A stretch of 64,000 nucleotides of DNA from an uncultured Candidatus Saccharibacteria bacterium (GTDB lineage Bacteria > Patescibacteriota > Doudnabacteria > UBA920): positions 21,399 to 85,398 of the forward strand of contig CAZHER010000003.1 in the NCBI GenBank assembly GCA_964532005.1, in the 5' to 3' direction. Below the pieces are notes generated by a model. That model ran no database searches. It was not told the origin of the DNA and saw nothing but the letters and a program-made list of their open reading frames with translations. This document shows positions 4,346 through 58,969 of this stretch, piece by piece. The position numbers and the translations under genes were made by a program. Within the stretch, counting starts at the first letter, position 1. The number at the start of each line of letters is the position of its first letter.

Positions 4346-4375
4346 TTGGCTAAAACTTCAGTTTTGTGCTATAAT
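4346..4375 (+). promoter_or_regulatory. sigma70-like promoter TTGGCT-18 nt-TATAAT (with TGc extended -10) upstream of the M23 peptidase gene
   Basis: Hexamers at 4346-4351 and 4370-4375, about 12 nt before the ATG at 4387. Confidence 0.4.
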
Positions 4376-4386
4376 GTTGCCATAAT

Positions 4387-5673
4387 ATGAAGAAAAGCCA
4401 TAAAGAAATAAAAACAAAAATATTATATTCTGCCATCTCGGTCGGTCTTATATTTGGGGCCGGTTTTTTGGTTTTTAATTCAGTTTCAGCAGAAACAAGA
4501 CAACAATTACAAGACAAGCTCAGCAACCTTAACAGTAAAATAGGGGAGCTGACCCAAAATGTAAATCGGTTACGCCAACAGGGAGCCACTTTAAAAAACG
4601 AAATTGAGATATATGATTCTCAGATTGCTTCTACAGAATTGGAAATTCAAGCTAACAACACCAGGATTGCAGATATCACCTTGCAGATAGAAGATATCCA
4701 GGTACAGATAGAAAGGAGAGAAAAGGAAATTGCGGATAACAGGAAAATTTTAGCAGAGCTGGTGGTTCAACTGAATGAATTAGACAACAACACTTTTTTG
4801 ACCATGACTTTGGGAAGCGATAATTTTTCATCTTTCTTAGACCAAGTGCAATACACGAAAAGCGTAAATCAGCAGGTGTACGATCTGGTTCAGAAAATAA
4901 AAGATGTAAAACAAAAATTGGAAGATCAGCAAAAAGAACTGAAAGCCCAATTACAGCGCTTAAGCGAACTAAAAGAGGAATTAGAACAAAATCAAGCAGC
5001 TTTAGACGAGCAACGTTCCTCAAAGCAAACCTTGTTAAGTCAAACCCAGGGACAAGAGGGCAAGTATCAAAAAGCTTTAGCTGCCAGCCGCAATGAGCAA
5101 GCTGATGTTCTTCAGGAAATTCAAGGTTTGGATGCGAAAGCTCGAGGTAGCGGGAGCAAAAGTATTGCTGCAAGCAAAGGTGTGCTGGCTTGGCCGATGG
5201 AAGGGGTAATGACTCAAGGATACGGCAACACCGGCTTTACTTCTTTGGGCTATAATTTTCATAACGGTATAGATATTGCAGCTCCTGCTGGCAGGCCAAT
5301 TTACGTTCCGGCAGATGGTACGGTGGTTCGCTGTGCTGGCGGAGCTGCCGCATACGGCAACTGGTGTACTATCAAGCACACCATCGCTACTAAGTCTGGA
5401 AACAGACAAATAGTTACTTTGTTTGCCCATATGACAAAATATGTTTTATCCGGCGGACAAACTGTCAAACGAGGAGACCTGGTCGGTTATGAAGGGAATA
5501 CCGGGAACACCTCTCGTTTGTTGTACGGCCCTGACCGAGGGTATCATTTGCATTTTAGTGTTTTTGATGCAGACGGATTCACCATTACGCCAGGAAAATA
5601 TTCAGCAACTTATGGTCCTTATTTCGTGCCAAGCGGATATACGTATAATCCTTTAGACTTTTTAGGAAAATAA
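4387..5673 (+). CDS. secreted coiled-coil protein with C-terminal M23 (LytM) metalloendopeptidase domain (EnvC-like)
   Basis: Signal peptide, a long heptad-rich coiled coil, then M23 motifs HNGIDIAAP...GRPIYVPADGTV...YHLHFSV. Confidence 0.8.
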   Translation: MKKSHKEIKTKILYSAISVGLIFGAGFLVFNSVSAETRQQLQDKLSNLNSKIGELTQNVNRLRQQGATLKNEIEIYDSQIASTELEIQANNTRIADITLQIEDIQVQIERREKEIADNRKILAELVVQLNELDNNTFLTMTLGSDNFSSFLDQVQYTKSVNQQVYDLVQKIKDVKQKLEDQQKELKAQLQRLSELKEELEQNQAALDEQRSSKQTLLSQTQGQEGKYQKALAASRNEQADVLQEIQGLDAKARGSGSKSIAASKGVLAWPMEGVMTQGYGNTGFTSLGYNFHNGIDIAAPAGRPIYVPADGTVVRCAGGAAAYGNWCTIKHTIATKSGNRQIVTLFAHMTKYVLSGGQTVKRGDLVGYEGNTGNTSRLLYGPDRGYHLHFSVFDADGFTITPGKYSATYGPYFVPSGYTYNPLDFLGK

Positions 5674-5678
5674 CATAG

Positions 5679-6869
5679 ATGACACAAAAACAAAAAATTT
5701 ATAAGCTGGCTTTGGGAACAGCTTTGCTGTCTTTGCAGTTTTTGTTTTTTGTACCAGGTGCTGAGGCTCAAAACAACACCCCCACCAACAGCACTCCAGC
5801 AAATGAGCAAGGAAGATATGTAGGCAGGGGAGTGGAAGCTTCTATTCGCAGGCTTTTGTGTGCTCCTTCTGATTCATCAAGCGTACCAACCACCAATGGC
5901 GCAGTTGGTACCACAGTAGCCAAGGGAAGCAGCTCATCTCAAGACCTTTCCAACTGTATCAACAGGGGATATCGCTTTGCCCTAGCTTTCGGAGCAGTAG
6001 CTGCAGTATTCTTTTTTGTTCTTGCAGGGTATATGTACATGGTAGGTGGAGAAAATGGCAAACATGAAGCCAAGAACGTAATTATCTCTGTTATTGTTGG
6101 TTTTCTCATTATGTTATCTTCCTTTGTCCTGTTGCAACAAATCAATCCCACCTTAGTTTCCTTCCGCACCATTCAACCACCTCAGCTGGGGGGACAATAC
6201 TCACTCTTGCCTTCTTGTAGTGATTTAAAGCTTGGTATTGGTGAAGATTGTCAATTTGAGGATGGTTCGCCAGGAGTAAGCAACGGAAATGGCGGTGGCA
6301 TGACTCCACAAGGCGGGACAATGACTGGCAAAAGCGGCAAAGTGTGTAGTATGGGGAAAGACGAAGATTTGCAAACCCATGCTAAATGTAGCTTAGACTC
6401 GCGTTTGGAAAATGCATTTCAGGCTGCGGCTCGTGAGACAGGGATTGACGCTAATTTTATGAAAGCCATTGCTACAAAAGAGAGTCATTGGGATGAGTCC
6501 GCTATAAGTTGGACTAGATGCTGCAAGGGTCTTATGCAAATGTCAGACGCCACAGCAGCAAGATTTGGCTGTACTGGAAACGATTGGAAAACCAAAGGGG
6601 AAGTTATTATTCCTTGCGCAGCACGATATATGAAATATTTACGCGATAAATACGCTGGGAATGATTATGTTAAAATTGCTGCAGGTTATAACGCAGGTGA
6701 AGGCAGGTTGTCCCCAAGTCCGAATTGTCCTGGTATGGTAGTGGCTCTCTGCCCATTCAGAGACGCCGCCCAAACTGCTTGCATAGTGGGTGTAAATTCT
6801 TTAGAGCAGACGCGAAATTACGTTGTCACAGTGGCCAGATTTTATAATGAATATAAACAATGTCGATAA
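5679..6869 (+). CDS. T4SS-pilin-like (TrbC/VirB2-type two-TM hairpin) N-terminal module fused to SLT lytic transglycosylase domain
   Basis: Signal peptide; TM hairpin FALAFGAVAAVFFFVLAGYMYMVGGENGKHEAKNVIISVIVGFLIMLSSFVLL; C-terminal SLT signature KESHWDES...GLMQMSD...AGYNAG. Confidence 0.6.
   Translation: MTQKQKIYKLALGTALLSLQFLFFVPGAEAQNNTPTNSTPANEQGRYVGRGVEASIRRLLCAPSDSSSVPTTNGAVGTTVAKGSSSSQDLSNCINRGYRFALAFGAVAAVFFFVLAGYMYMVGGENGKHEAKNVIISVIVGFLIMLSSFVLLQQINPTLVSFRTIQPPQLGGQYSLLPSCSDLKLGIGEDCQFEDGSPGVSNGNGGGMTPQGGTMTGKSGKVCSMGKDEDLQTHAKCSLDSRLENAFQAAARETGIDANFMKAIATKESHWDESAISWTRCCKGLMQMSDATAARFGCTGNDWKTKGEVIIPCAARYMKYLRDKYAGNDYVKIAAGYNAGEGRLSPSPNCPGMVVALCPFRDAAQTACIVGVNSLEQTRNYVVTVARFYNEYKQCR
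5771..6193. repeat. copy 1 of an exact 423-bp direct duplication (second copy at 7544-7966, offset 1773 bp)
   Basis: Nucleotide strings compared block by block are identical. The identical 77-aa antisense ORFs at 5939-6172 and 7712-7945 confirm it. Boundaries are set by mismatches at 5770/7543 and 6194/7967. Confidence 0.85.
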
Positions 6870-7417
6870 TCCAACAATATAAGATATACTTTGTAGCAGG
6901 TTTTATCCTAATTTTGTTAGGGGTTGTGGCCGCAGTATATATATTTAAAGATGATTTAAAATTTGGAACCAGTTCAACAACGAATAAAATAAAAGTTGAA
7001 GGGAAACAGACAGAGGAGACAAAAAAATTATCCGAGCAGTTAAATTACCCTGGTAGCCCGCAAAAAGAGATTTCCGAAGACTGGATTTATTATAAAACTG
7101 ACCAGGGTTCAATCCGGATTAAGAATTTTTTCCCAAAAGACTATGACCCTTCAACCACCAAGCCATTTTTGATTACTGATAATGCTGATTATAAAATTGA
7201 ATATATAGCCGATGGAGACATGTATGAGGTGACTCTTAAGAGTACCAAAGGTAACCTGCAACAACTTCGTCAGAAAGCTGAGCTGGAGCTGGTAAATAAA
7301 TTTGGCACAAATAAATCAGATATTTGCCAATTACCAATTTTTGTTTATGAAGAAAATATAGATGCTTATAGGCCGAACAAATATAATCTAGGCCTGACAT
7401 TTTGTCCTTTAAATTAG
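6860..7417 (+). CDS. hypothetical membrane-anchored protein
   Basis: N-terminal TM (FVAGFILILLGVVAAVYIF); otherwise no motifs. Overlaps the upstream gene by 10 nt. Confidence 0.4.
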   Translation: MSIIQQYKIYFVAGFILILLGVVAAVYIFKDDLKFGTSSTTNKIKVEGKQTEETKKLSEQLNYPGSPQKEISEDWIYYKTDQGSIRIKNFFPKDYDPSTTKPFLITDNADYKIEYIADGDMYEVTLKSTKGNLQQLRQKAELELVNKFGTNKSDICQLPIFVYEENIDAYRPNKYNLGLTFCPLN

Positions 7418-7427
7418 TTAAATCAAA

Positions 7428-8672
7428 ATGATGACAAAGAATAAATTATTTAAAAGTTTGTTATTAGGAGTATTATTACTTGGGATATTATTCTCATATT
7501 CTTCAATAGCACAAGCAGACATAATTCCCAATCCCGTTCCTACAAACAACACCCCCACCAACAGCACTCCAGCAAATGAGCAAGGAAGATATGTAGGCAG
7601 GGGAGTGGAAGCTTCTATTCGCAGGCTTTTGTGTGCTCCTTCTGATTCATCAAGCGTACCAACCACCAATGGCGCAGTTGGTACCACAGTAGCCAAGGGA
7701 AGCAGCTCATCTCAAGACCTTTCCAACTGTATCAACAGGGGATATCGCTTTGCCCTAGCTTTCGGAGCAGTAGCTGCAGTATTCTTTTTTGTTCTTGCAG
7801 GGTATATGTACATGGTAGGTGGAGAAAATGGCAAACATGAAGCCAAGAACGTAATTATCTCTGTTATTGTTGGTTTTCTCATTATGTTATCTTCCTTTGT
7901 CCTGTTGCAACAAATCAATCCCACCTTAGTTTCCTTCCGCACCATTCAACCACCTCAGCTGGGGGGCAATTATACCATTGCTTCTTGCAAGGAGTTAGGT
8001 TTGGGAGATGACTGTGGTAGTCCCTCGGGAGATAATGGACCAGCTGATCCGAACGAAAACAGCCCTGTTGGGGATGGCCAAGAAAAAAATGGGGTAGTAT
8101 ATGGAGGGGGACGCTACAGGAATTTCCCTAGATTTGCCCAGACAGATCCACCATGGGCTCCAAAGAAGTATGGTAGGCAGTCCGGGTGCAGTACATATTA
8201 TGACGGAGGCTGTGGCCCTTCTGCATTTGCTGCCATTGCCCAGTATTATTACCAAAATGGAGGGGCTAAAATTTCACCCGACATCGCTTCTAAATATGGA
8301 AATCAAATTAATCCATTCACAGTCGGTGAATATGCAGTTGACAAGGGCCAAAGGGCTTGTCCCGGTGGTTCTTACGGGACGTTGGCTGCAACTGTAGCGC
8401 CAGCTTTTGGTTTAAAGGCGCAGCCAGCAGGATGGGGTACGATTGTTACAAATCTTGAAAAGGGCGTACCAGCTTGGGTTTCAATGGGAGGACTACCTTT
8501 TACTACGGGCGGACATTTTATTGTGTTAATTGCCAAAAAAGGAGATGAGATATACATTGTAGATAGTTATAAAAGAAATATTACTAGAGCAAAAGCTAGT
8601 ATAGTGCAAGCCCACTTCAAATATGGCTCTGTTGTCACATCGCCAACATTTACTCCACCAGTGCCAAATTAG
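7428..8672 (+). CDS. T4SS-pilin-like N-terminal module (identical to 5679-6869 over about 140 aa) fused to C39/papain-like cysteine peptidase domain
   Basis: Signal peptide, the shared TM hairpin, and a C-terminal Cys...His...Asp arrangement (GGCGPSAFAAIAQYY ... GGHFIVLIAKKGDEIYIVDSY). Confidence 0.6.
   Translation: MMTKNKLFKSLLLGVLLLGILFSYSSIAQADIIPNPVPTNNTPTNSTPANEQGRYVGRGVEASIRRLLCAPSDSSSVPTTNGAVGTTVAKGSSSSQDLSNCINRGYRFALAFGAVAAVFFFVLAGYMYMVGGENGKHEAKNVIISVIVGFLIMLSSFVLLQQINPTLVSFRTIQPPQLGGNYTIASCKELGLGDDCGSPSGDNGPADPNENSPVGDGQEKNGVVYGGGRYRNFPRFAQTDPPWAPKKYGRQSGCSTYYDGGCGPSAFAAIAQYYYQNGGAKISPDIASKYGNQINPFTVGEYAVDKGQRACPGGSYGTLAATVAPAFGLKAQPAGWGTIVTNLEKGVPAWVSMGGLPFTTGGHFIVLIAKKGDEIYIVDSYKRNITRAKASIVQAHFKYGSVVTSPTFTPPVPN
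7544..7966. repeat. copy 2 of the exact 423-bp direct duplication
   Basis: See copy 1 (5771-6193). Confidence 0.85.
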
Positions 8673-8685
8673 TCATGTTAAATAT

Positions 8686-10083
8686 ATGATGCATAAAATA
8701 ACAATATTATTATTCTCAGCGTTTATGTTTATAGGGCTCGGATTATCCCCGGTCACTGCGCTGGCCCAAGCCCCAGGTAGCCAGGGGCTGGTTCCTTGCG
8801 GTAGTTTTTCTGACAATCCCTGCCAGTTGGTAGATCTTTTCAATTTAGTCATAACTATTACCAACTTCTTAATCGGCATGGGTGGCATCGTAGCAGTGGT
8901 GGTGATAATTTATGCAGGTTGGTCTCTTGTACTTGCAGCGGGAAATGTTGAAGCTGTTACCGTGGCAAAAAAATTACTTGTTAATGCTTTTATCGGGTTC
9001 TTTTTTGTAATGATTGCTTTCGCCGGAGCTAATTTTCTCATTTTTGGAGCTCGCGGCTTTATAGTCGGCGAGCCAACCCAAGGCGGAACCCCAGTAGGTA
9101 TTTTTGTTTGCCCAATAGATTACTTGCTCGGTTATGCTGAGTGTGGCAATTCAGGTGGCGGGGGAGGTAATACAACTAACAACACCCCTGCAAATACACC
9201 TACCAATAATACAAATACCCCTACGAACACTCCCAATTTACCTTTTCAAATCCCTCCAGGCAGAGGAATAGGTGAAACAGCAATGTCATTAGAAGTCATT
9301 CCTAAAGAGAGAGATTCATGTCCAATAGGTCAAACTGCTTGGGTAGAAAATTTTTTTTTGATCAAAACAGCTTTCGCTCAAACACCACCATCTGACTGTG
9401 GGAGTGTTGCCGACGGATATTTAGCCGGTCCAAGGCATGATACTTTTCCTGATGATGTCATAATCCAACAAGATCTTAACATTCAGTTAGGGAGCCCTCG
9501 AAATAAAACTTGCAGTTCGGTATCGCGCGCTGGTTGTGGCATGATTTCAATGATCCACGCAATAAAGTTTATGCAGAAAAAGGGATATGTTTACGCAGGA
9601 TCTTGGACAAATGCATGGCACAATGAAGGCAACTTAAATCCTATATCTCGAATCACTGATCCAACTTGGTGGCCAAGGATATACCAAAATAACACAGGCT
9701 ATTTTACTTGTGCAAACAATGGAGCTGTTTATCATAGTGCTCCATCAGATATAATGAAAGATGGACAAATACTTAGAAATGTAACAGCATACCAGTCTAC
9801 TGCTTCTGGTGGTCCTGCTTTATTGGAACAAGTAAAGTTAGCTCTAGAAAGAAATGGGGTAGCAATAGCTCTTGTAAAAGGACCCCCGTTTAATACAGGA
9901 AATGCTGGGAATCATTTTATTCTTATATACAGACAATACTATGCTCAGTCAGATAATAATAAATTGTGGTTTGCTGTTGCCGATTCAAACAAGTATGCTC
10001 AAATTGGTCAGGTAAGATATGATGTTTTACAGAATCATCTTACTGGAGTAACAGTTATTTACCCTACAAGCTCGACTCCTTAG
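8686..10083 (+). CDS. T4SS-pilin-like protein (LVPCG...PC...NFL motif plus two-TM hairpin) with Asn/Thr/Pro linker and C-terminal C39/papain-like peptidase domain
   Basis: Signal peptide MMHKITILLFSAFMFIGLGLSPVTALAQA; QGLVPCGSFSDNPCQLVDLFNLVITITNFLIGMGG; linker GNTTNNTPANTPTNNTNTPTNTP; catalytic-like AGCGMISMIHAI ... GNHFILIY ... VADS. The ORF track starts it at 8623, but the ATG at 8686 precedes the signal peptide and is the more likely start. Confidence 0.6.
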   Translation: MMHKITILLFSAFMFIGLGLSPVTALAQAPGSQGLVPCGSFSDNPCQLVDLFNLVITITNFLIGMGGIVAVVVIIYAGWSLVLAAGNVEAVTVAKKLLVNAFIGFFFVMIAFAGANFLIFGARGFIVGEPTQGGTPVGIFVCPIDYLLGYAECGNSGGGGGNTTNNTPANTPTNNTNTPTNTPNLPFQIPPGRGIGETAMSLEVIPKERDSCPIGQTAWVENFFLIKTAFAQTPPSDCGSVADGYLAGPRHDTFPDDVIIQQDLNIQLGSPRNKTCSSVSRAGCGMISMIHAIKFMQKKGYVYAGSWTNAWHNEGNLNPISRITDPTWWPRIYQNNTGYFTCANNGAVYHSAPSDIMKDGQILRNVTAYQSTASGGPALLEQVKLALERNGVAIALVKGPPFNTGNAGNHFILIYRQYYAQSDNNKLWFAVADSNKYAQIGQVRYDVLQNHLTGVTVIYPTSSTP

Positions 10084-10629
10084 TTGAAAATAATAGAAAA
10101 GAGCCTCGAATTTCGTGTTCGAGGCTCTTTTGCTTGTATGGACGATCTTTGATTCTAGCTCGTCCAAAATTTCTTCCAGTCGGTTTTGCCAAAAGCGTTG
10201 GTTTTTTTCGCCTTCGACATGCTGCAGTCGAAATTCGCGAAAATATTTCCGTTCGCCAGCAGGGTCGAGACCGAAATCGACTGTGCCATCTGTCTGATCG
10301 TCGGCGATTACCTCGCCTTCTTTTGTCTCGATTGTCAGAGACGTATCCGAGACTAATGAAAAGGTAACTGTGCCGCCGCTTTTCAGGTGGCACTTTATGC
10401 TTTCCATTTTTTCCCCGTCTTTTTCAATGTCAACAAGGGAGCAGATCCCATCGCTAGGACCCATAAACATTGAAACAACCAGCAGCTTTTCCTGCCGTTG
10501 AACCTTTTGGAGGTTCGCCGGCAGGTCAGGCGTTTTGGTGTTATTTGACGGTCCTCGCTGACCGACTTCTAGACACGCGACCATAATGACGAATACAATC
10601 ATCCATAAGAATTGCCTTAAATTTTGCAT
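10027..10629 (-). CDS. hypothetical secreted or lipoprotein (GC-rich ORF); 3' end uncertain
   Basis: N-terminal signal (MIVFVIMVAC). The ORF reads through the terminator hairpin and overlaps the convergent gene by 57 nt, so the true C-terminus is doubtful. Confidence 0.35.
   Translation of the reverse strand: MQNLRQFLWMIVFVIMVACLEVGQRGPSNNTKTPDLPANLQKVQRQEKLLVVSMFMGPSDGICSLVDIEKDGEKMESIKCHLKSGGTVTFSLVSDTSLTIETKEGEVIADDQTDGTVDFGLDPAGERKYFREFRLQHVEGEKNQRFWQNRLEEILDELESKIVHTSKRASNTKFEALFYYFQLRSRACRVNNCYSSKMIL
10097..10131. terminator. rho-independent terminator hairpin (gagcctcgaa / ttcgaggctc) with T-run, downstream of the + gene ending at 10083
   Basis: Perfect 10-bp GC-rich stem, 7-nt loop, then TTTT. 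It lies inside the 3' end of the minus ORF 10027-10629. Confidence 0.6.
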
Positions 10630-10890: not shown

Positions 10891-11595
10891 ATGAAAAAAA
10901 CTTTTCTTATTTTGCTTTTAATCTGTGCCGGAAGTTTTGCAAGTTGCAAAATTGGCACAGTAGAAAACCAACTACCGGCGAGCGGAAGCAATCTACCAAC
11001 AAATTCCCAGAGCGCAACCAATCGCAAGTCCTTGCCTCCCAAACAACCACTATCAACGAAAGCCGATCCAGCTAATCGTTCTCCAATAGATTCAATGGTT
11101 CAGGCAACAGACTTCATTCCGCTTTTACAAGAGGACATGCGTTATGCAACCACCAACAATTTTATGCACCGTAAGTTGTATGACAACCCAAAATGTTTTT
11201 TGCTGAAAGTGGTAGCACAACACCTGAAACAAGCCGATGATTATCTTCAAACCAAGAAGCCGGGCTCTCGGCTCAAAGTTTGGGACTGCTACAGACCAAT
11301 GTTCGTCCAAAAGATGATGTCTGAATCAATTCCGGATAGAAGATATGTTGCAGATCCCAAGCAAGCGAAGCATCCTAAAGGGTTAGCAGTGGACGTTACA
11401 ATCGTGGACAGCTTTGGCAGGGATCTGGAAATGCCAAGCGAGTTTGATGATTTTTCTGCAAGAGCCGCTGCGCGCGGTGCAATGACCAAGGCTGCGGCTG
11501 AAAACCTGAAGTTGCTCCAGCAGGTGATGATGACCGCGAACTTCGTGGGTATTAGTTCTGAGTGGTGGCACTTTGAGTATATTGGTCCGCTTTAA
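10891..11595 (+). CDS. D-Ala-D-Ala dipeptidase, VanX/M15D family, lipoprotein
   Basis: Lipobox (LLICAGSFASC); M15D motifs MRYATTNNFM, DCYRP..Q, HPKGLAVDV and SEWWHFEY. Confidence 0.8.
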   Translation: MKKTFLILLLICAGSFASCKIGTVENQLPASGSNLPTNSQSATNRKSLPPKQPLSTKADPANRSPIDSMVQATDFIPLLQEDMRYATTNNFMHRKLYDNPKCFLLKVVAQHLKQADDYLQTKKPGSRLKVWDCYRPMFVQKMMSESIPDRRYVADPKQAKHPKGLAVDVTIVDSFGRDLEMPSEFDDFSARAAARGAMTKAAAENLKLLQQVMMTANFVGISSEWWHFEYIGPL

Positions 11596-11680: not shown

Positions 11681-12001
11681 TTTATGACGATCGTCTAGAA
11701 TTAAAATATATAGATAGAATTAGCTATTGCCAAAAAGACAGTATAAATGATAATTTTAGTAATATATTTTTTATAACAATAGTAAAGGAGTCTAGAAATA
11801 GAGAACAGTTATTAGTATTAATTTGTATTGGTTAGCATTTAGAATTTTTTTTTCACAATTAATAGTTAGCTAGTTGTTTAATAAAGTCTCATTATATTAT
11901 GTCGTATAACATACATTATCAGACGTAAGAAACATTGAGTTTTGTGGGTTTTGGCCTATATTCCCCAGTTTAAATAGGTGGTTCCCTGCTATACTTTAAA
12001 T

Positions 12002-12628
12002 ATGAATTTGCAAAATAGAAATATACGAGTTCTTATTCGCAAATTGGCTCGCAAACCTACACTGGCCGGAGTATTGGTATTGGTTTTGTTGCTTGGCTTA
12101 GTGTGGTGGCAAGGCCAGGGGCCCGTTCCAGATGAAGACGCTCCCCTGCTTGAGGGCCAAGAAAAAAATATTGAAAAAGAATTTGTACAAGATGGTATTT
12201 ATTTTGTAGAAGAAGTCATTGACGGCGACACTATATATATTGAAACAGATGATGGAGATAGTGAAAGCGTGAGGCTTATTGGTATTAATACTCCAGAGAC
12301 AGTTGATCCTAGAACTGAGGTTGAATGTTTTGGTAAGGAGGCTAGTATAAAGACAACTGAGTTGTTGCAAGATCAAGAAGTACGTATTGAATTTGATCCG
12401 GCCAAAGGTGACCGTGACCAATTCGGTAGGTTGTTGCGCTATGTCTTTTTGCCTGGCCAGACAAACCAGTCCGAACAGAACATTAACAAGCTACTCATTG
12501 AACAAGGTTTTGCTTATGAAAATTCTTACGGCGTGCCATACAAATTTGAAAAGGAGTTCAAGCAAGCACAGATTCAAGCAAAAAATTCTCAGGCAGGCTT
12601 ATGGGCACCAGGCGTATGTGCCAAGTAG
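12002..12628 (+). CDS. secreted thermonuclease (staphylococcal-nuclease-like, SNase fold) with N-terminal TM anchor
   Basis: SNase motifs RLIGINTPET, DQFGRLLRYVF and AGLW. The ORF track starts it at an upstream GTG (11978); ATG 12002 is used here. Confidence 0.7.
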   Translation: MNLQNRNIRVLIRKLARKPTLAGVLVLVLLLGLVWWQGQGPVPDEDAPLLEGQEKNIEKEFVQDGIYFVEEVIDGDTIYIETDDGDSESVRLIGINTPETVDPRTEVECFGKEASIKTTELLQDQEVRIEFDPAKGDRDQFGRLLRYVFLPGQTNQSEQNINKLLIEQGFAYENSYGVPYKFEKEFKQAQIQAKNSQAGLWAPGVCAK

Positions 12629-20974: not shown

Positions 20975-21892
20975 CTATATTTTTAAATATCTACGAATAG
21001 CCAGCATTGATGAGATTATGCTTAGTAATAGCGCAATTATAAGCTGTAACGCGACTAACACCGGAAAGCTGATAAAGTTTGAGCTGAAAATATCATTACC
21101 GGGGTTAAGGTACATATTTATTGTCGGAACAATTTTTGTATAAAAAGGGATTAAAAGCCCGCTGGTGACAAAAGTGGCAACGATACTGTACATCAAAGCT
21201 TCAATAATGAAAGGTCCGCGGATGTACCAGTTTGTCGCCCCCACCAGGCGCATTATTTCTACTTCCTCTCTTCTGTTATATATTGTCAGAGTAATGGTAT
21301 TGAAAATTACCAGAATGGCAATTAAAGAAAAAACGCTGACAAGTCCGATTCCGCCAACAACAACAAATTGTAAAAGCACGCGCAGTCGTTCTATGGTTTT
21401 ACGGTTGTCCTCGTAATTTACTTCGTCAATGCTATTTTTATATTTATCACCTTTTAGCTTTTCGGCAATGGCCGGATAGTCCTCAAGAGTTTGCCCTTTA
21501 ACTTGGAGGGTTGCAGGGAAAGGGTTTTCGCTAAGCTCTTTTACAGACTCCACTAACAGCGGGCTGTCTTGATGGCGGTCTTTAAAGTTTTGCAGTACTT
21601 GGTCTGATGATACGTAATTTACCTCTTTAACTTTTGGATCGCTTTCTAAATCACGTTTTACAGCCAAAACCTGGCTTTCACTAAGACCGGTTTTAAAATA
21701 TGCACTAATATCGACCCGCTCTCGTATGCTGTTAACAGAATAGTTAGTGATAACAAAAAGGATAAACATAACCGACAGAATTATCAAAGTTACAATCATA
21801 ATTAAAGTTGCCGCTGCTGAAAGCCAGCGGTTGCGCCAAAAATTCGTGATCCCGTTTCTTAGTATTCTGCCTAAAGAGATTAAATTATGCAT
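20975..21892 (-). CDS. ftsX: cell-division permease FtsX-like
   Basis: Four TM segments with a large periplasmic loop; coupled to ftsE by ATGA. Confidence 0.8.
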   Translation of the reverse strand: MHNLISLGRILRNGITNFWRNRWLSAAATLIMIVTLIILSVMFILFVITNYSVNSIRERVDISAYFKTGLSESQVLAVKRDLESDPKVKEVNYVSSDQVLQNFKDRHQDSPLLVESVKELSENPFPATLQVKGQTLEDYPAIAEKLKGDKYKNSIDEVNYEDNRKTIERLRVLLQFVVVGGIGLVSVFSLIAILVIFNTITLTIYNRREEVEIMRLVGATNWYIRGPFIIEALMYSIVATFVTSGLLIPFYTKIVPTINMYLNPGNDIFSSNFISFPVLVALQLIIALLLSIISSMLAIRRYLKI

Positions 21893-22569
21893 TATAGCTT
21901 GTAGGTTCCTTTGGCCTGCTCAATGGTTATTTGACCACCTTCAATTGTCAGCACGCGCTTCCCTATTTTGTTAACTAGATCTGCGGCGTGAGTTGCCAGA
22001 ATTACTGTTGTCCCCAGCTTATTGATTTTCATTAAAAGATCTAAAACTTCGTTGGCGTTAACTTCGTCTAAATTCCCTGTAGGTTCGTCTGCCAGAAGCA
22101 AAACCGGTCGGTGAGCTAAAGATCTAGCAATGGCAACGCGCTGCATTTCTCCGCCTGACATTTCATGAGGAAAATTTTGTTGTTTATGAAGCAACCCAAC
22201 TAGTTCTAGAATTTTGGGTACATCTTTTTGTATTTTATCTTTTCTATGCCCAGAAACCTCCATCGCGAAAGCAACATTTTCATATGCTGTTAGTCTAGGA
22301 AGAAGTTTCATATCTTGGAACACAATTCCAATTTTTCGTCTGAGGTATGGAAGGTCGCTTTTCCGGACCGTTGACATATCTATATCGTCAATAAGGATTT
22401 GCCCATCATCCAAACTTTCTTCGCCTATTATGAGTTTCATCAAAGTCGACTTGCCTGCTCCAGACATTCCGACCAAAGAAATAAACTCGCCCTGATCGAT
22501 ATTAAGAGAAACATTGTTCAGAGCTTTGCTGTCACCGTAATATTTGGTTACGTTTTTAAAACGAATCAT
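21892..22569 (-). CDS. ftsE: cell-division ATP-binding protein FtsE
   Basis: Walker A GMSGAGKST, ABC signature LSGGEMQRVAIARSL and Walker B LLLADEPT. Confidence 0.9.
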   Translation of the reverse strand: MIRFKNVTKYYGDSKALNNVSLNIDQGEFISLVGMSGAGKSTLMKLIIGEESLDDGQILIDDIDMSTVRKSDLPYLRRKIGIVFQDMKLLPRLTAYENVAFAMEVSGHRKDKIQKDVPKILELVGLLHKQQNFPHEMSGGEMQRVAIARSLAHRPVLLLADEPTGNLDEVNANEVLDLLMKINKLGTTVILATHAADLVNKIGKRVLTIEGGQITIEQAKGTYKL

Positions 22570-37027: not shown

Positions 37028-38476
37028 CTAATAATTTTTGCACTCGATCTGATTACACATGTAGCCTGTGTATCCTTTGGGCGGATTGTCAAAAACTGCT
37101 TTTAATGTGAAAGCATCGAATGTTTCGCTGACTTCATATACATAATCTTTGCCAGTGCGCGGGTCTTTAGGAATATCTGTCATAAATCGCGGAACCAAAG
37201 ATAGTTTATAGCTTTCTTCGGTTGGAAATACTTTTCGTTCCGGAGCAGTGATGTCTATATTACTATCCGAGTATAGACCCAAGGCTAAGGCAATATTTTC
37301 AACGTCGCGTTTTCTCTTTTCGTCGTTGGCGCTGGCATTGTTTTTAATTTGATCCAGTTCAGCTTGCTGACTTCCGTATTTAATAACTAAATTTTGCGTT
37401 TCGCTGAAGTATAGAAGAGTAAATTCTTGGTTATTGTTGGAGGCTACATAGCCGTAAACATATTTGTCTTTGTTTATAGGATCGTCGTAGTTGGTTGCGA
37501 CCGCCACATAAGATTTTACTTGGCTGGCCATATCTGCAAAGCTGTCAGTAGCTGGATAACTGCCTCTTGCAGACTTGTATTTCAAGAGACCAGCAGCAAT
37601 CTTTTGAATCGTATTGGATCTTTGGGTATCCCTAGCCAGCTTGGCTGTTGGTGACTGGTCTATAGATGAATCTATATCAGAGCTATCAGTAGGCATGTCA
37701 ATTGAAAGATCGGTAAACTCATATTGCTTTAACGCATCAGCTCCTAATGTTTTTATTGTTGGCTGGTGCAGACCCTTGCTTTTTATTTTGTCTTTGATTT
37801 CCTGAAGTTGCGTTTCGCTAAATTTTACATTAGTTGTAATATCATATCCTCCCCGAGCGAAGTCGGAATCCTTATAATCTTCCCCGGAATTGGTGCGGTC
37901 GGTCAAAGGACTTCCTCCAAAAACATGGACTTCATCTCCGTCAGCCAAGCCATCAGAATCACTGTCAGAATTATTAGGATCGGTTTTGCTGTTGTATTCT
38001 TCTAAATTGTTTAAACCGTCACGATCGGGATCGGCGTTGTCTGCGCACACTGTTTTATCTTGGCAGTCTTCTGAGCTAAAGTATCTTTTTTGCCATTCAA
38101 CAGGAGTTGTAACATCGCCTTTAATCTCTTCATCATTATCTCTATCAGAATCCGAATTGTCTTCGTTTACTGCTACATTAGTATCGTTGCTTTGATTCTG
38201 TTGTTTGGCATATTTATAACCAAAATAACCAAATACACTCAGTACAACAATAGCTAAAACAACCACAACAATCATCACAATTTTGCGGTTTGAGTGAGGG
38301 ATGGAAAAACCGCTTATTTCCTCGTTTTCCATTACAGGTGTTGCCGAAGATTTTGTTGAACTAACAGCGGGCTGTTTGGAAATTACGGATGGCCCAGAAA
38401 TATTGCGAGGCATTACATTGTAAAATGCTTCTCCTGCTTCCTCTTCTTCTGGATTTACGTTTGGTTTAGGATCCAT
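37028..38476 (-). CDS. membrane-anchored protein with thrombospondin-type-3-like Asp-rich Ca-binding repeats and a C-terminal type IV pilin/pseudopilin-like globular domain
   Basis: TM near the N-terminus; DPDRDGLNNLEEYNSKTDPNNSDSDSDGLADGDE repeats; C-terminal ALALGLY...IPKDPRTGKDYVYEV...FTLKAV resembles GspG/pilin cores. Confidence 0.45.
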   Translation of the reverse strand: MDPKPNVNPEEEEAGEAFYNVMPRNISGPSVISKQPAVSSTKSSATPVMENEEISGFSIPHSNRKIVMIVVVVLAIVVLSVFGYFGYKYAKQQNQSNDTNVAVNEDNSDSDRDNDEEIKGDVTTPVEWQKRYFSSEDCQDKTVCADNADPDRDGLNNLEEYNSKTDPNNSDSDSDGLADGDEVHVFGGSPLTDRTNSGEDYKDSDFARGGYDITTNVKFSETQLQEIKDKIKSKGLHQPTIKTLGADALKQYEFTDLSIDMPTDSSDIDSSIDQSPTAKLARDTQRSNTIQKIAAGLLKYKSARGSYPATDSFADMASQVKSYVAVATNYDDPINKDKYVYGYVASNNNQEFTLLYFSETQNLVIKYGSQQAELDQIKNNASANDEKRKRDVENIALALGLYSDSNIDITAPERKVFPTEESYKLSLVPRFMTDIPKDPRTGKDYVYEVSETFDAFTLKAVFDNPPKGYTGYMCNQIECKNY

Positions 38477-57472: not shown

Positions 57473-58969
57473 TTATTGGATTCCCGCTTGAGTCAATTCA
57501 TGAGGTCCTGCTGTAATTCCACCTACTGTGCCCCCAAGACAGAATGTGAGCCGGTATTCTCCAGGTCCATAATAAGCGTATCTGTACTGGTTTTGCTCAG
57601 ATGTGCAGGTTCCTCCCGGTGGTTCCGGTGCTGTTGGTACTGTTCCTAAATAAAGATCAGCAAGATCATTTAGTGATCCTGGATAAGATGATTTATCATT
57701 GTAGTAAAGCTCCAGTGCTGATGCGATTTGTCTTACGTCAGCTAATCGTTTTGCGTCTGCTGCCTTACCTAGCGCATCTCCAAGAAGATCGAAAGCGCCT
57801 TGGGGTTCTGAAATCACTTTCTTTTGTCCGTAATCACTGTAGGTGGCATCAAGCCTAAAAGTACCAGTAAATTTTATTTTATCCATAAATGTTTCCATCT
57901 CTTTTTTTTGTTTTGCTATTGAGTTCACATCAGCCGTGCTGAAGTCTCCAAATTCTTCAGAGAACAGTTTTATTATTGAAACAAAGGAAGGTGCATTGCT
58001 AACCAAATGCATTTTATAGAGATTATAGTCTTCAGAACCCACCCACACATCTAGTTCTTTAACTTCAATTTTACTCAATAGTTTAGCAAAAAAAGCGTCT
58101 ACTAGTTCTTTGTCGTCATCAGACCACGATACATTCTCATCAAGAGAGGCAAGACCCATTAAGCTTTCCATTAATGCTTTTTTTGTCGCTTCTTTGTCTA
58201 GTTCTGCTTTGAAGTGGAGTGTTCTGGCATCATTGACTTTATCCCTACCAACATACTTTTTGATTTTGATTGCCCTGTTATCTAACCATATCTGCCGCAT
58301 TTTTTCCTCGAAAGCAGGATCAATAATTTTTTTGAACAGTTCAGCATCGGCGCTGGACTGGTCCGCAGCAGCTTTATCAATATCAACCATCACCCATTCA
58401 ACATCTTTATTCTCTGGACCTGCTATTCCGCTCAAGAACGGTATGTCACCCACTTTGTAGAAAATCTTTTTGTTTAAAGATCGAAATTCAACACCGCTTG
58501 AAAAGCTTGTATTGCCACTAGAAACGCTAAAATTTAAGTTGCCGTCAAATTCAGGGCTTGTCGTATCGGTAAAATCGGCGTATGTGTCTCCATCAATGTT
58601 CAATTTAATGTTTTTCAGTACTATACCCAGATCGTTATTTGGGTCTTCGTATGATTCAGGATCTGTGTATTCCATTGAAAATTTCGCATTGTACATTTTT
58701 TCATCAGACTCTCCAGTGTAAAACCTGTCCCAGATTTTGCTGGGTGACAACACACTCAGACCTTTAACTGAGTATCCTTGAGAGTAGCTACCGTACCCAA
58801 CAGCACCCAAAATTACAAGCAAGCCTACCAAGCCACCGATTATTTTATATTTTGTTCTATTTTTGCTTGGTTCAGGGTTCGGATTGAGTTCAGGACTAAT
58901 TTCTATCCCTGGTTTTACCTCATTAACCTCAATACTAGGTGTGGGAGGGTATAATTCATTTTCGTTCAT
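57473..58969 (-). CDS. membrane-anchored protein with C-terminal type IV pilin/pseudopilin-like domain
   Basis: N-terminal TM; C-terminal IASALELYYNDKSSYPGSLNDL...YRYAYYGPGEYRLTFCLGG resembles GspG-type pilin cores. Confidence 0.45.
   Translation of the reverse strand: MNENELYPPTPSIEVNEVKPGIEISPELNPNPEPSKNRTKYKIIGGLVGLLVILGAVGYGSYSQGYSVKGLSVLSPSKIWDRFYTGESDEKMYNAKFSMEYTDPESYEDPNNDLGIVLKNIKLNIDGDTYADFTDTTSPEFDGNLNFSVSSGNTSFSSGVEFRSLNKKIFYKVGDIPFLSGIAGPENKDVEWVMVDIDKAAADQSSADAELFKKIIDPAFEEKMRQIWLDNRAIKIKKYVGRDKVNDARTLHFKAELDKEATKKALMESLMGLASLDENVSWSDDDKELVDAFFAKLLSKIEVKELDVWVGSEDYNLYKMHLVSNAPSFVSIIKLFSEEFGDFSTADVNSIAKQKKEMETFMDKIKFTGTFRLDATYSDYGQKKVISEPQGAFDLLGDALGKAADAKRLADVRQIASALELYYNDKSSYPGSLNDLADLYLGTVPTAPEPPGGTCTSEQNQYRYAYYGPGEYRLTFCLGGTVGGITAGPHELTQAGIQ

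Follow-up and report, generated by a model that had tools for sequence, protein, structure and literature searches.

Why should enzymes that cut bacterial cell walls be carried behind a membrane segment related to the pilins of type IV secretion systems (T4SS)? The question is raised by a 64-kb stretch of contig CAZHER010000003.1 (64,000 nucleotides, the window), from an uncultured Candidatus Saccharibacteria bacterium, in which the interval 5679-10083 comprises four plus-strand genes, here designated g1, orf185, g2 and g3 (Table 1). A sequence-only reading of this interval had described three consecutive genes of a common build, i.e. a signal peptide, a VirB2/TrbC-type hairpin and a C-terminal hydrolase. 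That build is borne out for g1, g2 and g3 by Pfam, hydropathy and relatives, yet the genes number four, a conserved 185-aa open reading frame (ORF) with a single transmembrane (TM) segment being located between g1 and g2 (6860-7417). The reading that we favour, at a probability of about 0.5, is that of a membrane-tethered wall-remodelling battery which employs a co-opted pilin hairpin as its anchor and acts, most likely, on the producer's own wall.

In Patescibacteria, T4SS with arrays of VirB2-like pilins are widespread (Quinonero-Coronel et al. 2025, PMC12102498). The arrays comprise 2-11 genes, in tandem or with one non-pilin gene between them, and are defined by a match to PF18895 or PF04956 with i-E<0.001 and >50% coverage of the hidden Markov model (HMM), their pilins sharing a mean identity of 25% and a maximum of 54% (PMC12102498). 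The pilin array and T4SS of Southlakia epibionticum are essential (Wang et al. 2023, PMC10633639; reviewed in PMC12857230), which makes VirB2-like arrays one of a small number of envelope features that are specific to Patescibacteria and known to be essential in a cultivated member. Freshwater-specific structure clusters are dominated by PF18895 (10.1101/2025.04.23.650224).

A pilin-like hairpin shared by three genes

As read from sequence and hydropathy rather than by dedicated predictors of signal peptides and topology, g1, g2 and g3 each start with a signal-like segment containing an AxA-type site, behind which lie two helices of strong hydrophobicity. Pfam matches this region to T4SS_pilin (PF18895) with E-values of 2.3e-4 (g1), 5e-4 (g2) and 3.9e-5 (g3), covering positions 9-64 or 11-64 of the 71 in the HMM. 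In a full-length AlphaFold2 (AF2) model of g2 based on 18 sequences, with a mean predicted local distance difference test (pLDDT) score of 76.6, the helices occupy residues 94-130 and 132-163 with a one-residue break between them, at a pLDDT of ~71-89 as compared to >90 for the C-terminal domain. Two forms of the module were distinguished, type A being that of g1 and g2 and type B that of g3; the latter, which does carry the LVPCG...PC...NFL motif previously pointed out in the third gene, is closer to the canonical PF18895 form and homologous to type A. In types A and B alike, Cys pairs precede helix 1 and follow helix 2, and these fit a topology in which both hairpin ends would be outside and the hydrolase would lie outside the cytoplasm.

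Sequence comparison leads us to regard the hairpin and VirB2/TrbC-type pilins as truly homologous in spite of the weak Pfam scores, since relatives give stronger matches and since the hairpin can be aligned with a pilin from a T4SS cluster. Among the 122 closest cluster representatives, 79 match PF18895 at E<=1e-3, the best at 9.5e-19. The type-A profile also retrieves, weakly, loci L012/L013 and L036/L037, which are T4SS clusters encoding VirB4, VirB6/TrbL and also a coupling protein, and which hold a 113-aa protein matching TrbC/VirB2 (4e-16) and PF18895 (9e-14). When aligned, the g1 hairpin ...AVFFFVLAGYMYMVGGENGK--HEAKNVIISVIVGFLIML... and the 113-aa pilin ...AVIFLVLAGYMYMTSAGNPERLDKAKSTLKWTIIGIAIVL... 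share the motif VLAGYMYM...AK. No solved pilin was among the PDB matches of the hairpin profile, all of which (Kelch-repeat designs and FPP synthase) were spurious.

Like VirB2/TrbC pilins, g1-g3 combine a signal peptide with a two-helix hydrophobic hairpin and a short Lys-containing loop, the sequence homology being strong in their relatives and weak in g1-g3 themselves. Like VirB2 arrays, they are tandem genes with one interspersed non-pilin gene, and the full-length identity of g1 and g2 (46-51%) is below the published maximum of 54%; by E-values, coverage and the one non-pilin gene between g1 and g2 they fall within the formal array definition, which does not make them pilins. Other pilin hallmarks are missing: the proteins measure 396, 414 and 465 aa and continue for 200-300 aa past helix 2 into enzymatic C-termini, in contrast to the ~110-185 aa of stand-alone pilins, and they show no T4SS linkage, being located away from virB4 and co-operonic with an M23 peptidase. 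The g1 and g2 modules are, moreover, 100% identical, as opposed to ~25% among array pilins, and the short pilins of T4SS clusters lack the extra features of type A, namely the N-terminal Cys pair, the sequence INPxLxxFxxIQPP and the Cys loop.

Several further features of the module were observed. The sequence INPxLxxF(R/K)xIQPP stands directly after helix 2 (g1 residues 155-168, 6141-6182) and is near-invariant across the 122 relatives, with N, P, Q, P and P each conserved in at least 90%, and it is absent from the short T4SS-cluster pilins; it may serve as a hinge or as a site of docking or processing. Asn/Thr/Pro-rich stretches, NNTPTNSTPANEQ at the mature N-terminus of g1 and g2 (5772-5810 and 7545-7583) and GNTTNNTPANTPTNNTNTPTNTPN in the g3 linker (~9170-9240), may represent glycosylated or extended spacers. 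Another N-terminal use of the hairpin is seen in a 483-aa protein of a T4SS cluster (L012 1501-2952, also L036 10190-11641), in which a PF18895 hairpin (1e-9) is fused to TrbL/VirB6 (3e-6), while P0107, P0123, P0144 and P0150 carry 3-4 tandem pilin-like hairpins in single polypeptides of 480-890 aa.

An exact repeat confined to the module

Window positions 5771-6193, in g1, and 7544-7966, in g2, form an exact direct repeat of 423 nt, outside of which identity drops to the random level. The repeat extends from the first residue past the signal-peptide cleavage site of g1 to 15 residues after helix 2 and corresponds exactly to the mature module, the signal peptides and cargo domains of g1 and g2 being unrelated; the reading frames are unbroken across both of its borders. 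Exact intragenomic repeats of the module also occur in L001 (467 and 386 nt, three copies), L007 (239 nt) and L003 (80 nt). Within loci, the cores of type-A hairpins are 62-99% identical, whereas type-A paralogues share 17-28% identity in their cargo, and orthologous modules are 40-71% identical between genomes. Compared with its orthologues, the g1 module is no better conserved than the SLT domain of the same protein (70.9 versus 76.6% identity for L002 and 62.4 versus 66.7% for L001).

Module identity is thus high within genomes, yet the orthologous module is conserved no better than the SLT domain, and at the sequence level this pattern is the signature of gene conversion between tandem paralogues, confined to the module. 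It represents a clean case of conversion limited to one domain, the anchor being identical and the enzymatic cargo swappable. Selection, for instance for hairpin co-assembly or for a common partner, may also help to keep the modules identical. The possibility that the repeat acts as a programmed switch was considered and rejected, as repeats in direct orientation would do no more than remove the genes between them, and gene conversion was favoured.

The repeat also coincides with assembly breaks. L002 ends inside it (9385-9439), and L014 1-972 was noted in the same connection. Two Joint Genome Institute (JGI) contigs of 730,078 bp (P0006/P0007) and 785,239 bp (P0010/P0011) each encode two module proteins truncated at the N-terminus; what is left of the module is identical or nearly so in the two, whereas their cargo differs, and P0006 and P0010 are located at the very start of their contigs. 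The two JGI contigs are probably circular genomes of ~0.75 Mb that are broken only at the repeat, and it is because of the module repeat that assemblies of otherwise closed candidate phyla radiation (CPR) genomes would break recurrently at this site.

Three enzymatic domains

Each of g1-g3 possesses a single catalytic domain. For g1, the predicted SLT lytic transglycosylase is well founded: PF01464 matches at 9.6e-14 (51.4 bits against a cut-off of 21.3), and the motifs of family-1 lytic transglycosylases are present as TKES at residues 266-269 (ES 268-269), GLMQ at 284-287 and GYNAG at 336-340. Matches of g1 in PHROGs were to lytic tail and endolysin entries.

The C39-like assignment of g2 likewise holds, with Peptidase_C39_2 at 2.3e-6 (28.7 bits against the Pfam cut-off of 24) and with a C39/papain fold in the AF2 model of the C-terminal domain, for which Foldseek gave an E-value of 2.7e-5 to the PCAT1 peptidase domain; the fold also resembles the papain-like toxin 9l5u, the contact-dependent inhibition (CDI) toxin 8ssm and PeiR. 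Used as a single sequence against the PDB, the g2 domain gave nothing useful. In eight members of the g2-type family the Gln, Cys (GCGP), His (GGHF) and Asp residues are invariant. The catalytic domains listed for lysins of Gram-positive phages include Peptidase_C39_2 (PMC8223927).

The C-terminal 295 aa of g3 had no match in Pfam and no sequence match in the PDB, and NCBIfam and PHROGs yielded nothing further for g2 or g3. The g3-type family is rare, with four proteins, and a profile search for more homologues gave none; residues C114, H240 and D263 of the domain are invariant in all four. A comparison of the g2-type and g3-type families by hhalign returned a probability of 97% (E 8.7e-11) with the columns of the GCG Cys, the His and the Asp aligned, and on the strength of this profile match g3, too, is judged to end in a C39-like peptidase with a Cys/His/Asp triad, as had been proposed.

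A probable M23-led operon

Successive genes from the M23 gene through g1, orf185 and g2 to g3 are separated by 5, -10, 10 and 13 nt, and these tight gaps, together with a terminator-like hairpin after g3, make the five genes look like one operon, the putative boundaries of which were taken from pattern scans. The product of the leading gene matches Peptidase_M23 (Pfam 5.7e-20), weakly CC_PcsB (2.6e-3) and MepM/DipM/EnvC-type entries of NCBIfam, and its HxxxD and HxH motifs can be read in the sequence. An M23 gene lies directly 5' of the array in every related locus that is long enough to show it. This leader and the exact 423-nt repeat had both been missed by the sequence-only reading, the domain calls of which stood.

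The last 10 nt of g1 are shared with the start of orf185. Homologues of orf185 are single-TM ORFs of 150-188 aa which directly follow the module-SLT gene in L001, L002, L003 and L009, the called ORFs overlapping by 13-23 nt, and more divergent or weaker forms are found in L004, L008 and L029. No match to orf185 was found in Pfam, NCBIfam, PHROGs or the PDB. The gene is a conserved partner of the module-SLT gene and part of the system.

FtsX (FtsX_ECD and FtsX) and FtsE (ABC_tran, 4e-37) are encoded at 20975-22569 on the minus strand, 11 kb from the coiled-coil M23 gene, and are a possible partner of the first gene of the operon in the manner of FtsEX-PcsB/EnvC.

Related loci and breadth of the family

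Related loci were collected from one genome per species and from metagenome contigs, which yielded 13 and 19 loci, respectively; all named loci are metagenome-assembled genomes of Patescibacteria, labelled as Saccharibacteria, Doudnabacteria, Andersenbacteria or UBA926. A conserved gene order was observed, consisting of a CAP-domain protein, WecG, GluRS, the M23 coiled-coil protein and 1-4 module genes (280-690 aa), followed by minus-strand genes. It recurs in every strong type-A locus with enough flanking sequence (L001, L002, L004-L007, L009-L011) and in metagenome loci L020, L022, L028, L031, L032 and L034, i.e. in ~15 independent loci. The module-SLT gene and its small ORF are usually the first or second of the array, and the later genes vary.

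The window encodes no VirB4-, VirB6- or VirD4/coupling-protein-like ORF in its 64 kb, in agreement with the earlier statement that VirB4 and VirD4 are absent from it. Likewise, phmmer searches with Patescibacteria queries for VirB4, VirB6 and the type IV coupling protein (T4CP) found none within 10 kb of the ~15 arrays, and these same queries do detect L012, L013, L036 and L037. The T4SS connection that had been drawn is accordingly not supported beyond hairpin homology: the ~15 loci share a CAP-WecG-GluRS-M23 neighbourhood in which T4SS genes are absent within 10 kb.

Cargo is diverse. Next to the SLT/C39/C39 set of the window, L001 carries a GDSL/SGNH esterase, SLT and a LAS-like domain, L006 SLT and CHAP, L007 and L009 SLT and M15_4, and L008 M23 and M15, and several further cargo domains have no Pfam match. 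An M15 domain is fused to the module in P0003, in a 534-aa protein of L008 and in P0087, P0003 being a 796-aa protein that unites module, M23, M15 and g3-type domain. The arrays of L001 and L014 end with a cargo-free, type-B pilin-like gene of 179-194 aa. As a separate observation, L017 644-1306 (+) encodes, beside a module gene, a Peptidase_C39_2 protein that has a plain single-TM signal anchor and no pilin hairpin.

When the type-A profile was run against 1.84 billion cluster representatives, it matched 18,936 at E<=1e-3, 1,173 at <=1e-10 and 148 at <=1e-30. Of the 150 best matches, nearly all are fusions. At least 120 aa follow the module in 134 of 153 module proteins, and the recognisable cargo of the 122 closest representatives is in all cases wall-active (SLT 15, M15 6, C39_2 6, M23 6, Amidase_2 3, M15_4 3, VanY 3, GDSL 3, SLT_3 3, CHAP 1). 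On the basis of these long C-termini and this cargo, the module-hydrolase fusion is a widespread rule of the family and not a peculiarity of the source genome, and the earlier suggestion that the module is a general scaffold for hydrolases is supported. A large conserved subset of PF18895-type "pilins" would accordingly be N-terminal anchors of peptidoglycan hydrolases in an M23-led operon unlinked to secretion. This changes how VirB2 arrays, 441 of which have been published, should be counted and read, and some of the reported "pilin arrays" may be batteries of wall hydrolases.

Phage collections gave five weak matches, to the C39 domain only and on unannotated gut phage contigs, and plasmid collections gave none; an origin from a mobile element was rejected on these results. 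Signal-anchor-release (SAR) endolysins and other TM-tethered phage muralytic enzymes resemble g1-g3 in that a muralytic domain follows an N-terminal membrane segment, and C39_2 and SLT are shared with phage lysins. The anchor of a SAR endolysin is one weakly hydrophobic, releasable helix, whereas the window locus is chromosomal and non-phage and encodes a cleaved signal peptide and a stable hairpin.

Function of the array

In the reading that we favour, each enzyme would be exported by Sec and its signal peptide removed, upon which the VirB2/TrbC-type hairpin would re-insert with both ends outside, as hydropathy, the Cys pairs and the precedent of pilins suggest. A flexible linker of 25-60 residues, rich in Gly, Ser, Thr, Asn and Pro, would let the C-terminal domain reach the peptidoglycan, where SLT is predicted to cut the glycan strands and the C39-like, M23 and M15 enzymes to cut or trim the stem peptides, judging by family membership and intact catalytic residues. 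The hairpin would be a co-opted pilin homologue serving as an anchor or assembly module, rather than a mark of secretion machinery at the locus. Through gene conversion this anchor would stay identical or near-identical within each genome as the cargo is swapped between relatives, and the battery, together with the PcsB/EnvC-like M23 protein, would serve growth and division of the cell's own wall and the passage of envelope machines through it.

The producer's own wall is favoured as the target because the operon is core and syntenic, its leader is PcsB/EnvC-like, FtsEX is encoded nearby and linkage to secretion genes is lacking, and because a membrane tether with a short linker would reach the own wall first. 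FtsE/FtsX at 11 kb and the presence of MurJ in the window provide a cell-division context. PcsB, EnvC, CwlO and RipC are coiled-coil hydrolases controlled by FtsEX. The locus resembles systems of this kind, with which membrane-bound lytic transglycosylases may be grouped, in its leader, which joins a coiled coil to M23, in the FtsE/FtsX genes 11 kb off on the other strand, in having its enzymes at the membrane-wall interface, and in being core, syntenic and vertically inherited. We know of no FtsEX-type system with enzymes anchored by pilin hairpins or with a tandem array of homogenised anchors.

A number of observations weigh against this reading. The PF18895 scores of g1, g2 and g3 (21.6, 20.5 and 24.1 bits) are under the gathering cut-off of 26.6, and the AF2 model of the g3 domain, built from four sequences, is poor (pLDDT 38.5), its helix-then-strands order nevertheless fitting. 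Cargo differs among close relatives, a variability that enzymes of core housekeeping would be less likely to show. The array is adjoined by genes for a secreted nuclease (11978-12628) and for a D-Ala-D-Ala dipeptidase (10891-11595), which fit scavenging from a host. The choice of a pilin hairpin instead of a plain TM segment, and the homogenisation of that hairpin, are unexplained by simple tethering. Lastly, the essential T4SS cluster of the cultivated relative S. epibionticum contains the same enzyme classes as separate genes beside six PF18895 pilins (one protein with lysozyme x2 and a cysteine protease, and an M15B-like protein); separate there and fused here, the components hint, by Rosetta-stone logic, at a functional link between pilin and hydrolase.

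The alternative that survives best assigns the hairpins the role of true subunits, which a T4SS encoded elsewhere would extract and polymerise or use as minor or tip subunits, resulting in a filament equipped with a glycosidase and peptidases that breaches or digests the wall of the episymbiont's host bacterium; the wall of a host or partner cell had also been named as a possible target in the sequence-only reading. We consider such T4SS-dependent, host-directed display to be unlikely and retain it because the fusion of components that are separate in S. epibionticum is evidence of joint function. In its favour, the hairpin is homologous to pilins of genuine T4SS clusters, T4SS pilin arrays are widespread in Patescibacteria and essential in S. 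epibionticum (PMC12102498; PMC10633639), the T4SS cluster of which includes the same enzyme classes, and identical hairpins in the paralogues would permit co-polymerisation. The cargo is variable and the linkers are long and flexible, and the cargo-free type-B gene of 179-194 aa at the end of the L001 and L014 arrays could encode a major subunit. Yet VirB4, VirB6 and T4CP are all missing from the 10 kb around each of the ~15 arrays, as compared to a pilin near virB4 in 1,135 of 1,948 assemblies (PMC12102498). The array is, furthermore, co-operonic with a PcsB/EnvC-like M23 protein and free of secretion genes. A domain of 25-30 kDa on each subunit is also hard to fit into a VirB2-type helical filament of the kind seen in F and T pilus structures, and to our knowledge no pilus of this module family has ever been observed.

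It is quite unlikely, in our estimate, that the homogenised hairpins co-assemble diverse wall enzymes, be it in a T4SS-extruded filament bearing glycosidase, peptidase and esterase heads or in a multi-hydrolase ring in the membrane, with which the cell would drill into or feed on the wall of its host. If that were true, many Patescibacteria 'VirB2 pilins' would be carriers of enzymes and not structural pilins.

More doubtful again is the proposal that the proteins are helpers of the VirB1 type, i.e. tethered hydrolases that open gaps in the own wall for T4SS and/or type IV pili, with the hairpin targeting them to the machine. SLT and cysteine peptidase are indeed the activities of VirB1-type proteins in Gram-positive bacteria (PMC12102498), and homology of the hairpin to pilins could confer affinity for a T4SS. 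The enzymes share with VirB1, PrgK, TraG (pIP501) and CD419 the pairing of a lytic transglycosylase or lysozyme with a cysteine peptidase, an N-terminal anchor and an extracytoplasmic site, and to this extent the analogy with VirB1/PrgK that had been put forward stands. It fails with respect to the one-polypeptide build and the T4SS cluster: the activities reside on separate genes, the anchor is a hairpin and not a single TM segment, and no T4SS genes are linked or nearby. The module family also extends to other cargo (M15, M23, Amidase_2, GDSL), and three to five varied enzymes, including a carboxypeptidase/dipeptidase and a GDSL esterase, exceed what the making of gaps would need.

Antagonism in the manner of polymorphic toxins appears improbable. 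Here the module would be a trafficking or anchoring device for swappable wall-degrading toxins aimed at competitors or hosts, and orf185 an immunity protein or inhibitor. The likeness to CDI, Rhs and LXG toxins lies in an identical N-terminal module with unrelated C-terminal enzymes in tandem, recombination at the module border, turnover of cargo between relatives, one small gene translationally coupled downstream of the SLT gene, and the resemblance of the g2 domain to 9l5u and 8ssm; the fold scores for these two toxins are, however, no better than those for C39 and PeiR. A conserved partner is found downstream of the SLT gene only; g2 is followed by g3 and g3 by the terminator, with no immunity gene after either, and the module-SLT/orf185 pair, instead of being polymorphic, is an orthologous one that remains stable from genome to genome. 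The locus lacks a dedicated secretion partner, is core and syntenic in a stable position outside any island, and has no plasmid matches.

That the pilin likeness is a chance match of hydrophobic helices and the 423-nt repeat an assembly duplication or chimera is barely credible: the window proteins do score under the PF18895 gathering threshold, TM helices can produce spurious HMM matches such as those of the module profile to Kelch-repeat designs, and repeats are prone to be misassembled from short reads, L002 and two JGI contigs ending inside the module, but 79 of 122 relatives match PF18895, down to 9.5e-19, the motif alignment with T4SS-cluster pilins is clear, the reading frames are intact across both repeat borders, and independent assemblies (L001, L003, L007, P0006/7, P0010/11) display the same within-genome module identity with different cargo.

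Taken individually, the hairpin, SLT, C39_2, M23 and tethered autolysins are of known kinds, and it is their combination, in a conserved operon and with homogenisation limited to one domain, that appears undescribed. No description of pilin-hydrolase fusions, their linkage to M23 or identical modules was found in the literature, coverage of which was incomplete, so that this is absence of evidence only. The fusion is a natural one that ties pilin hairpins to wall hydrolases, and the locus is a candidate wall-remodelling or wall-breaching toolkit of ultrasmall episymbionts.

Features of the window

The coordinates of the array and its immediate neighbours are given in Table 1. The ORF of g3 opens at 8623; its start was placed at 8686, the position at which, by comparison of signal peptides, the homologues P0002 and P0004 start. 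P0013 of a public protein collection is identical to g1.

Table 1. Features of the array and adjoining DNA, in window coordinates
Feature	Coordinates	Strand	Remarks and evidence
Promoter-like site, putative operon start before the M23 gene	4346..4375	+	TTGGCT-18-TATAAT with TG; pattern scan, weak evidence
M23 gene, heads the operon: signal-anchored coiled coil and Peptidase_M23, PcsB/EnvC-like build	4387..5673	+	Pfam, NCBIfam, synteny
g1: signal peptide 5679-5768, pilin-like module, linker, SLT domain 6414-6710	5679..6869	+	396 aa
g1 catalytic motif sites	ES 6480-6485; GLMQ 6528-6539	+	
Repeat copy 1: mature pilin-like module (g1 aa 32-172), two-helix hairpin 5958-6149	5771..6193	+	
orf185: single N-terminal TM helix, ~150-aa extracytoplasmic domain (predicted), 2 Cys	6860..7417	+	185 aa
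g2: signal peptide 7428-7517, pilin-like module, linker, Peptidase_C39_2 papain-fold domain 8079-8639	7428..8672	+	414 aa
g2 catalytic residues	Cys262 8211-8213; His363 8514-8516; Asp379 8562-8564	+	
Repeat copy 2; hairpin 7731-7922	7544..7966	+	
g3: signal peptide 8686-8766, PF18895-type hairpin with LVPCG/PC/NFL 8788-9066	8686..10083	+	465 aa
g3 divergent C39-like domain, preceded by a Thr/Asn/Pro-rich linker	~9433-10065	+	Cys284, His410, Asp433
Terminator-like hairpin, bidirectional	10097..10131	.	14-bp stem, T-runs on both strands, 14 nt past the g3 stop; pattern scan
Secreted/lipoprotein-like Peptidase_M15, VanX-type D-Ala-D-Ala dipeptidase	10891..11595	+	Pfam

The remaining genes of the window are housekeeping genes, among them those for GluRS, CTP synthase, FtsE/FtsX, RF, ThyA, GyrB, PheS, an AddA-like helicase, ATP synthase, LepA and MurJ. 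Two large minus-strand ORFs, at 37028-38476 (482 aa) and 57473-58969 (498 aa), had no Pfam match at E<=1e-3.

Exported proteins flank the array, namely a CAP/SCP-domain protein (1149-1979, +), the M15 protein (10891-11595, +) and a TM-anchored nuclease of the staphylococcal type (11978-12628, +), a setting that resembles a secretome or scavenging neighbourhood. A sigma-70 promoter with 12/12 consensus positions and an extended -10 TG is located at 10745-10717 on the minus strand, ahead of a 200-aa ORF (10629-10027, -) with a possible lipoprotein-type signal, the 3' end of which crosses the terminator hairpin and overlaps the end of g3. No significant family match was obtained for this ORF, the best in Pfam being RnlA_toxin_N at E 1e-3, below the cut-off. 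In L015 an ORF of matching position and orientation adjoins the g3 homologue, and the order of the window, i.e. g3-type gene, minus-strand ORF and M15, is repeated there.

The window resembles a replication-terminus region: plus-strand genes occupy its first ~12.6 kb, nearly every gene beyond ~17.8 kb is a minus-strand one, the cumulative GC skew reaches its maximum at 16-18 kb, and related loci show the same strand switch 3' of the array.

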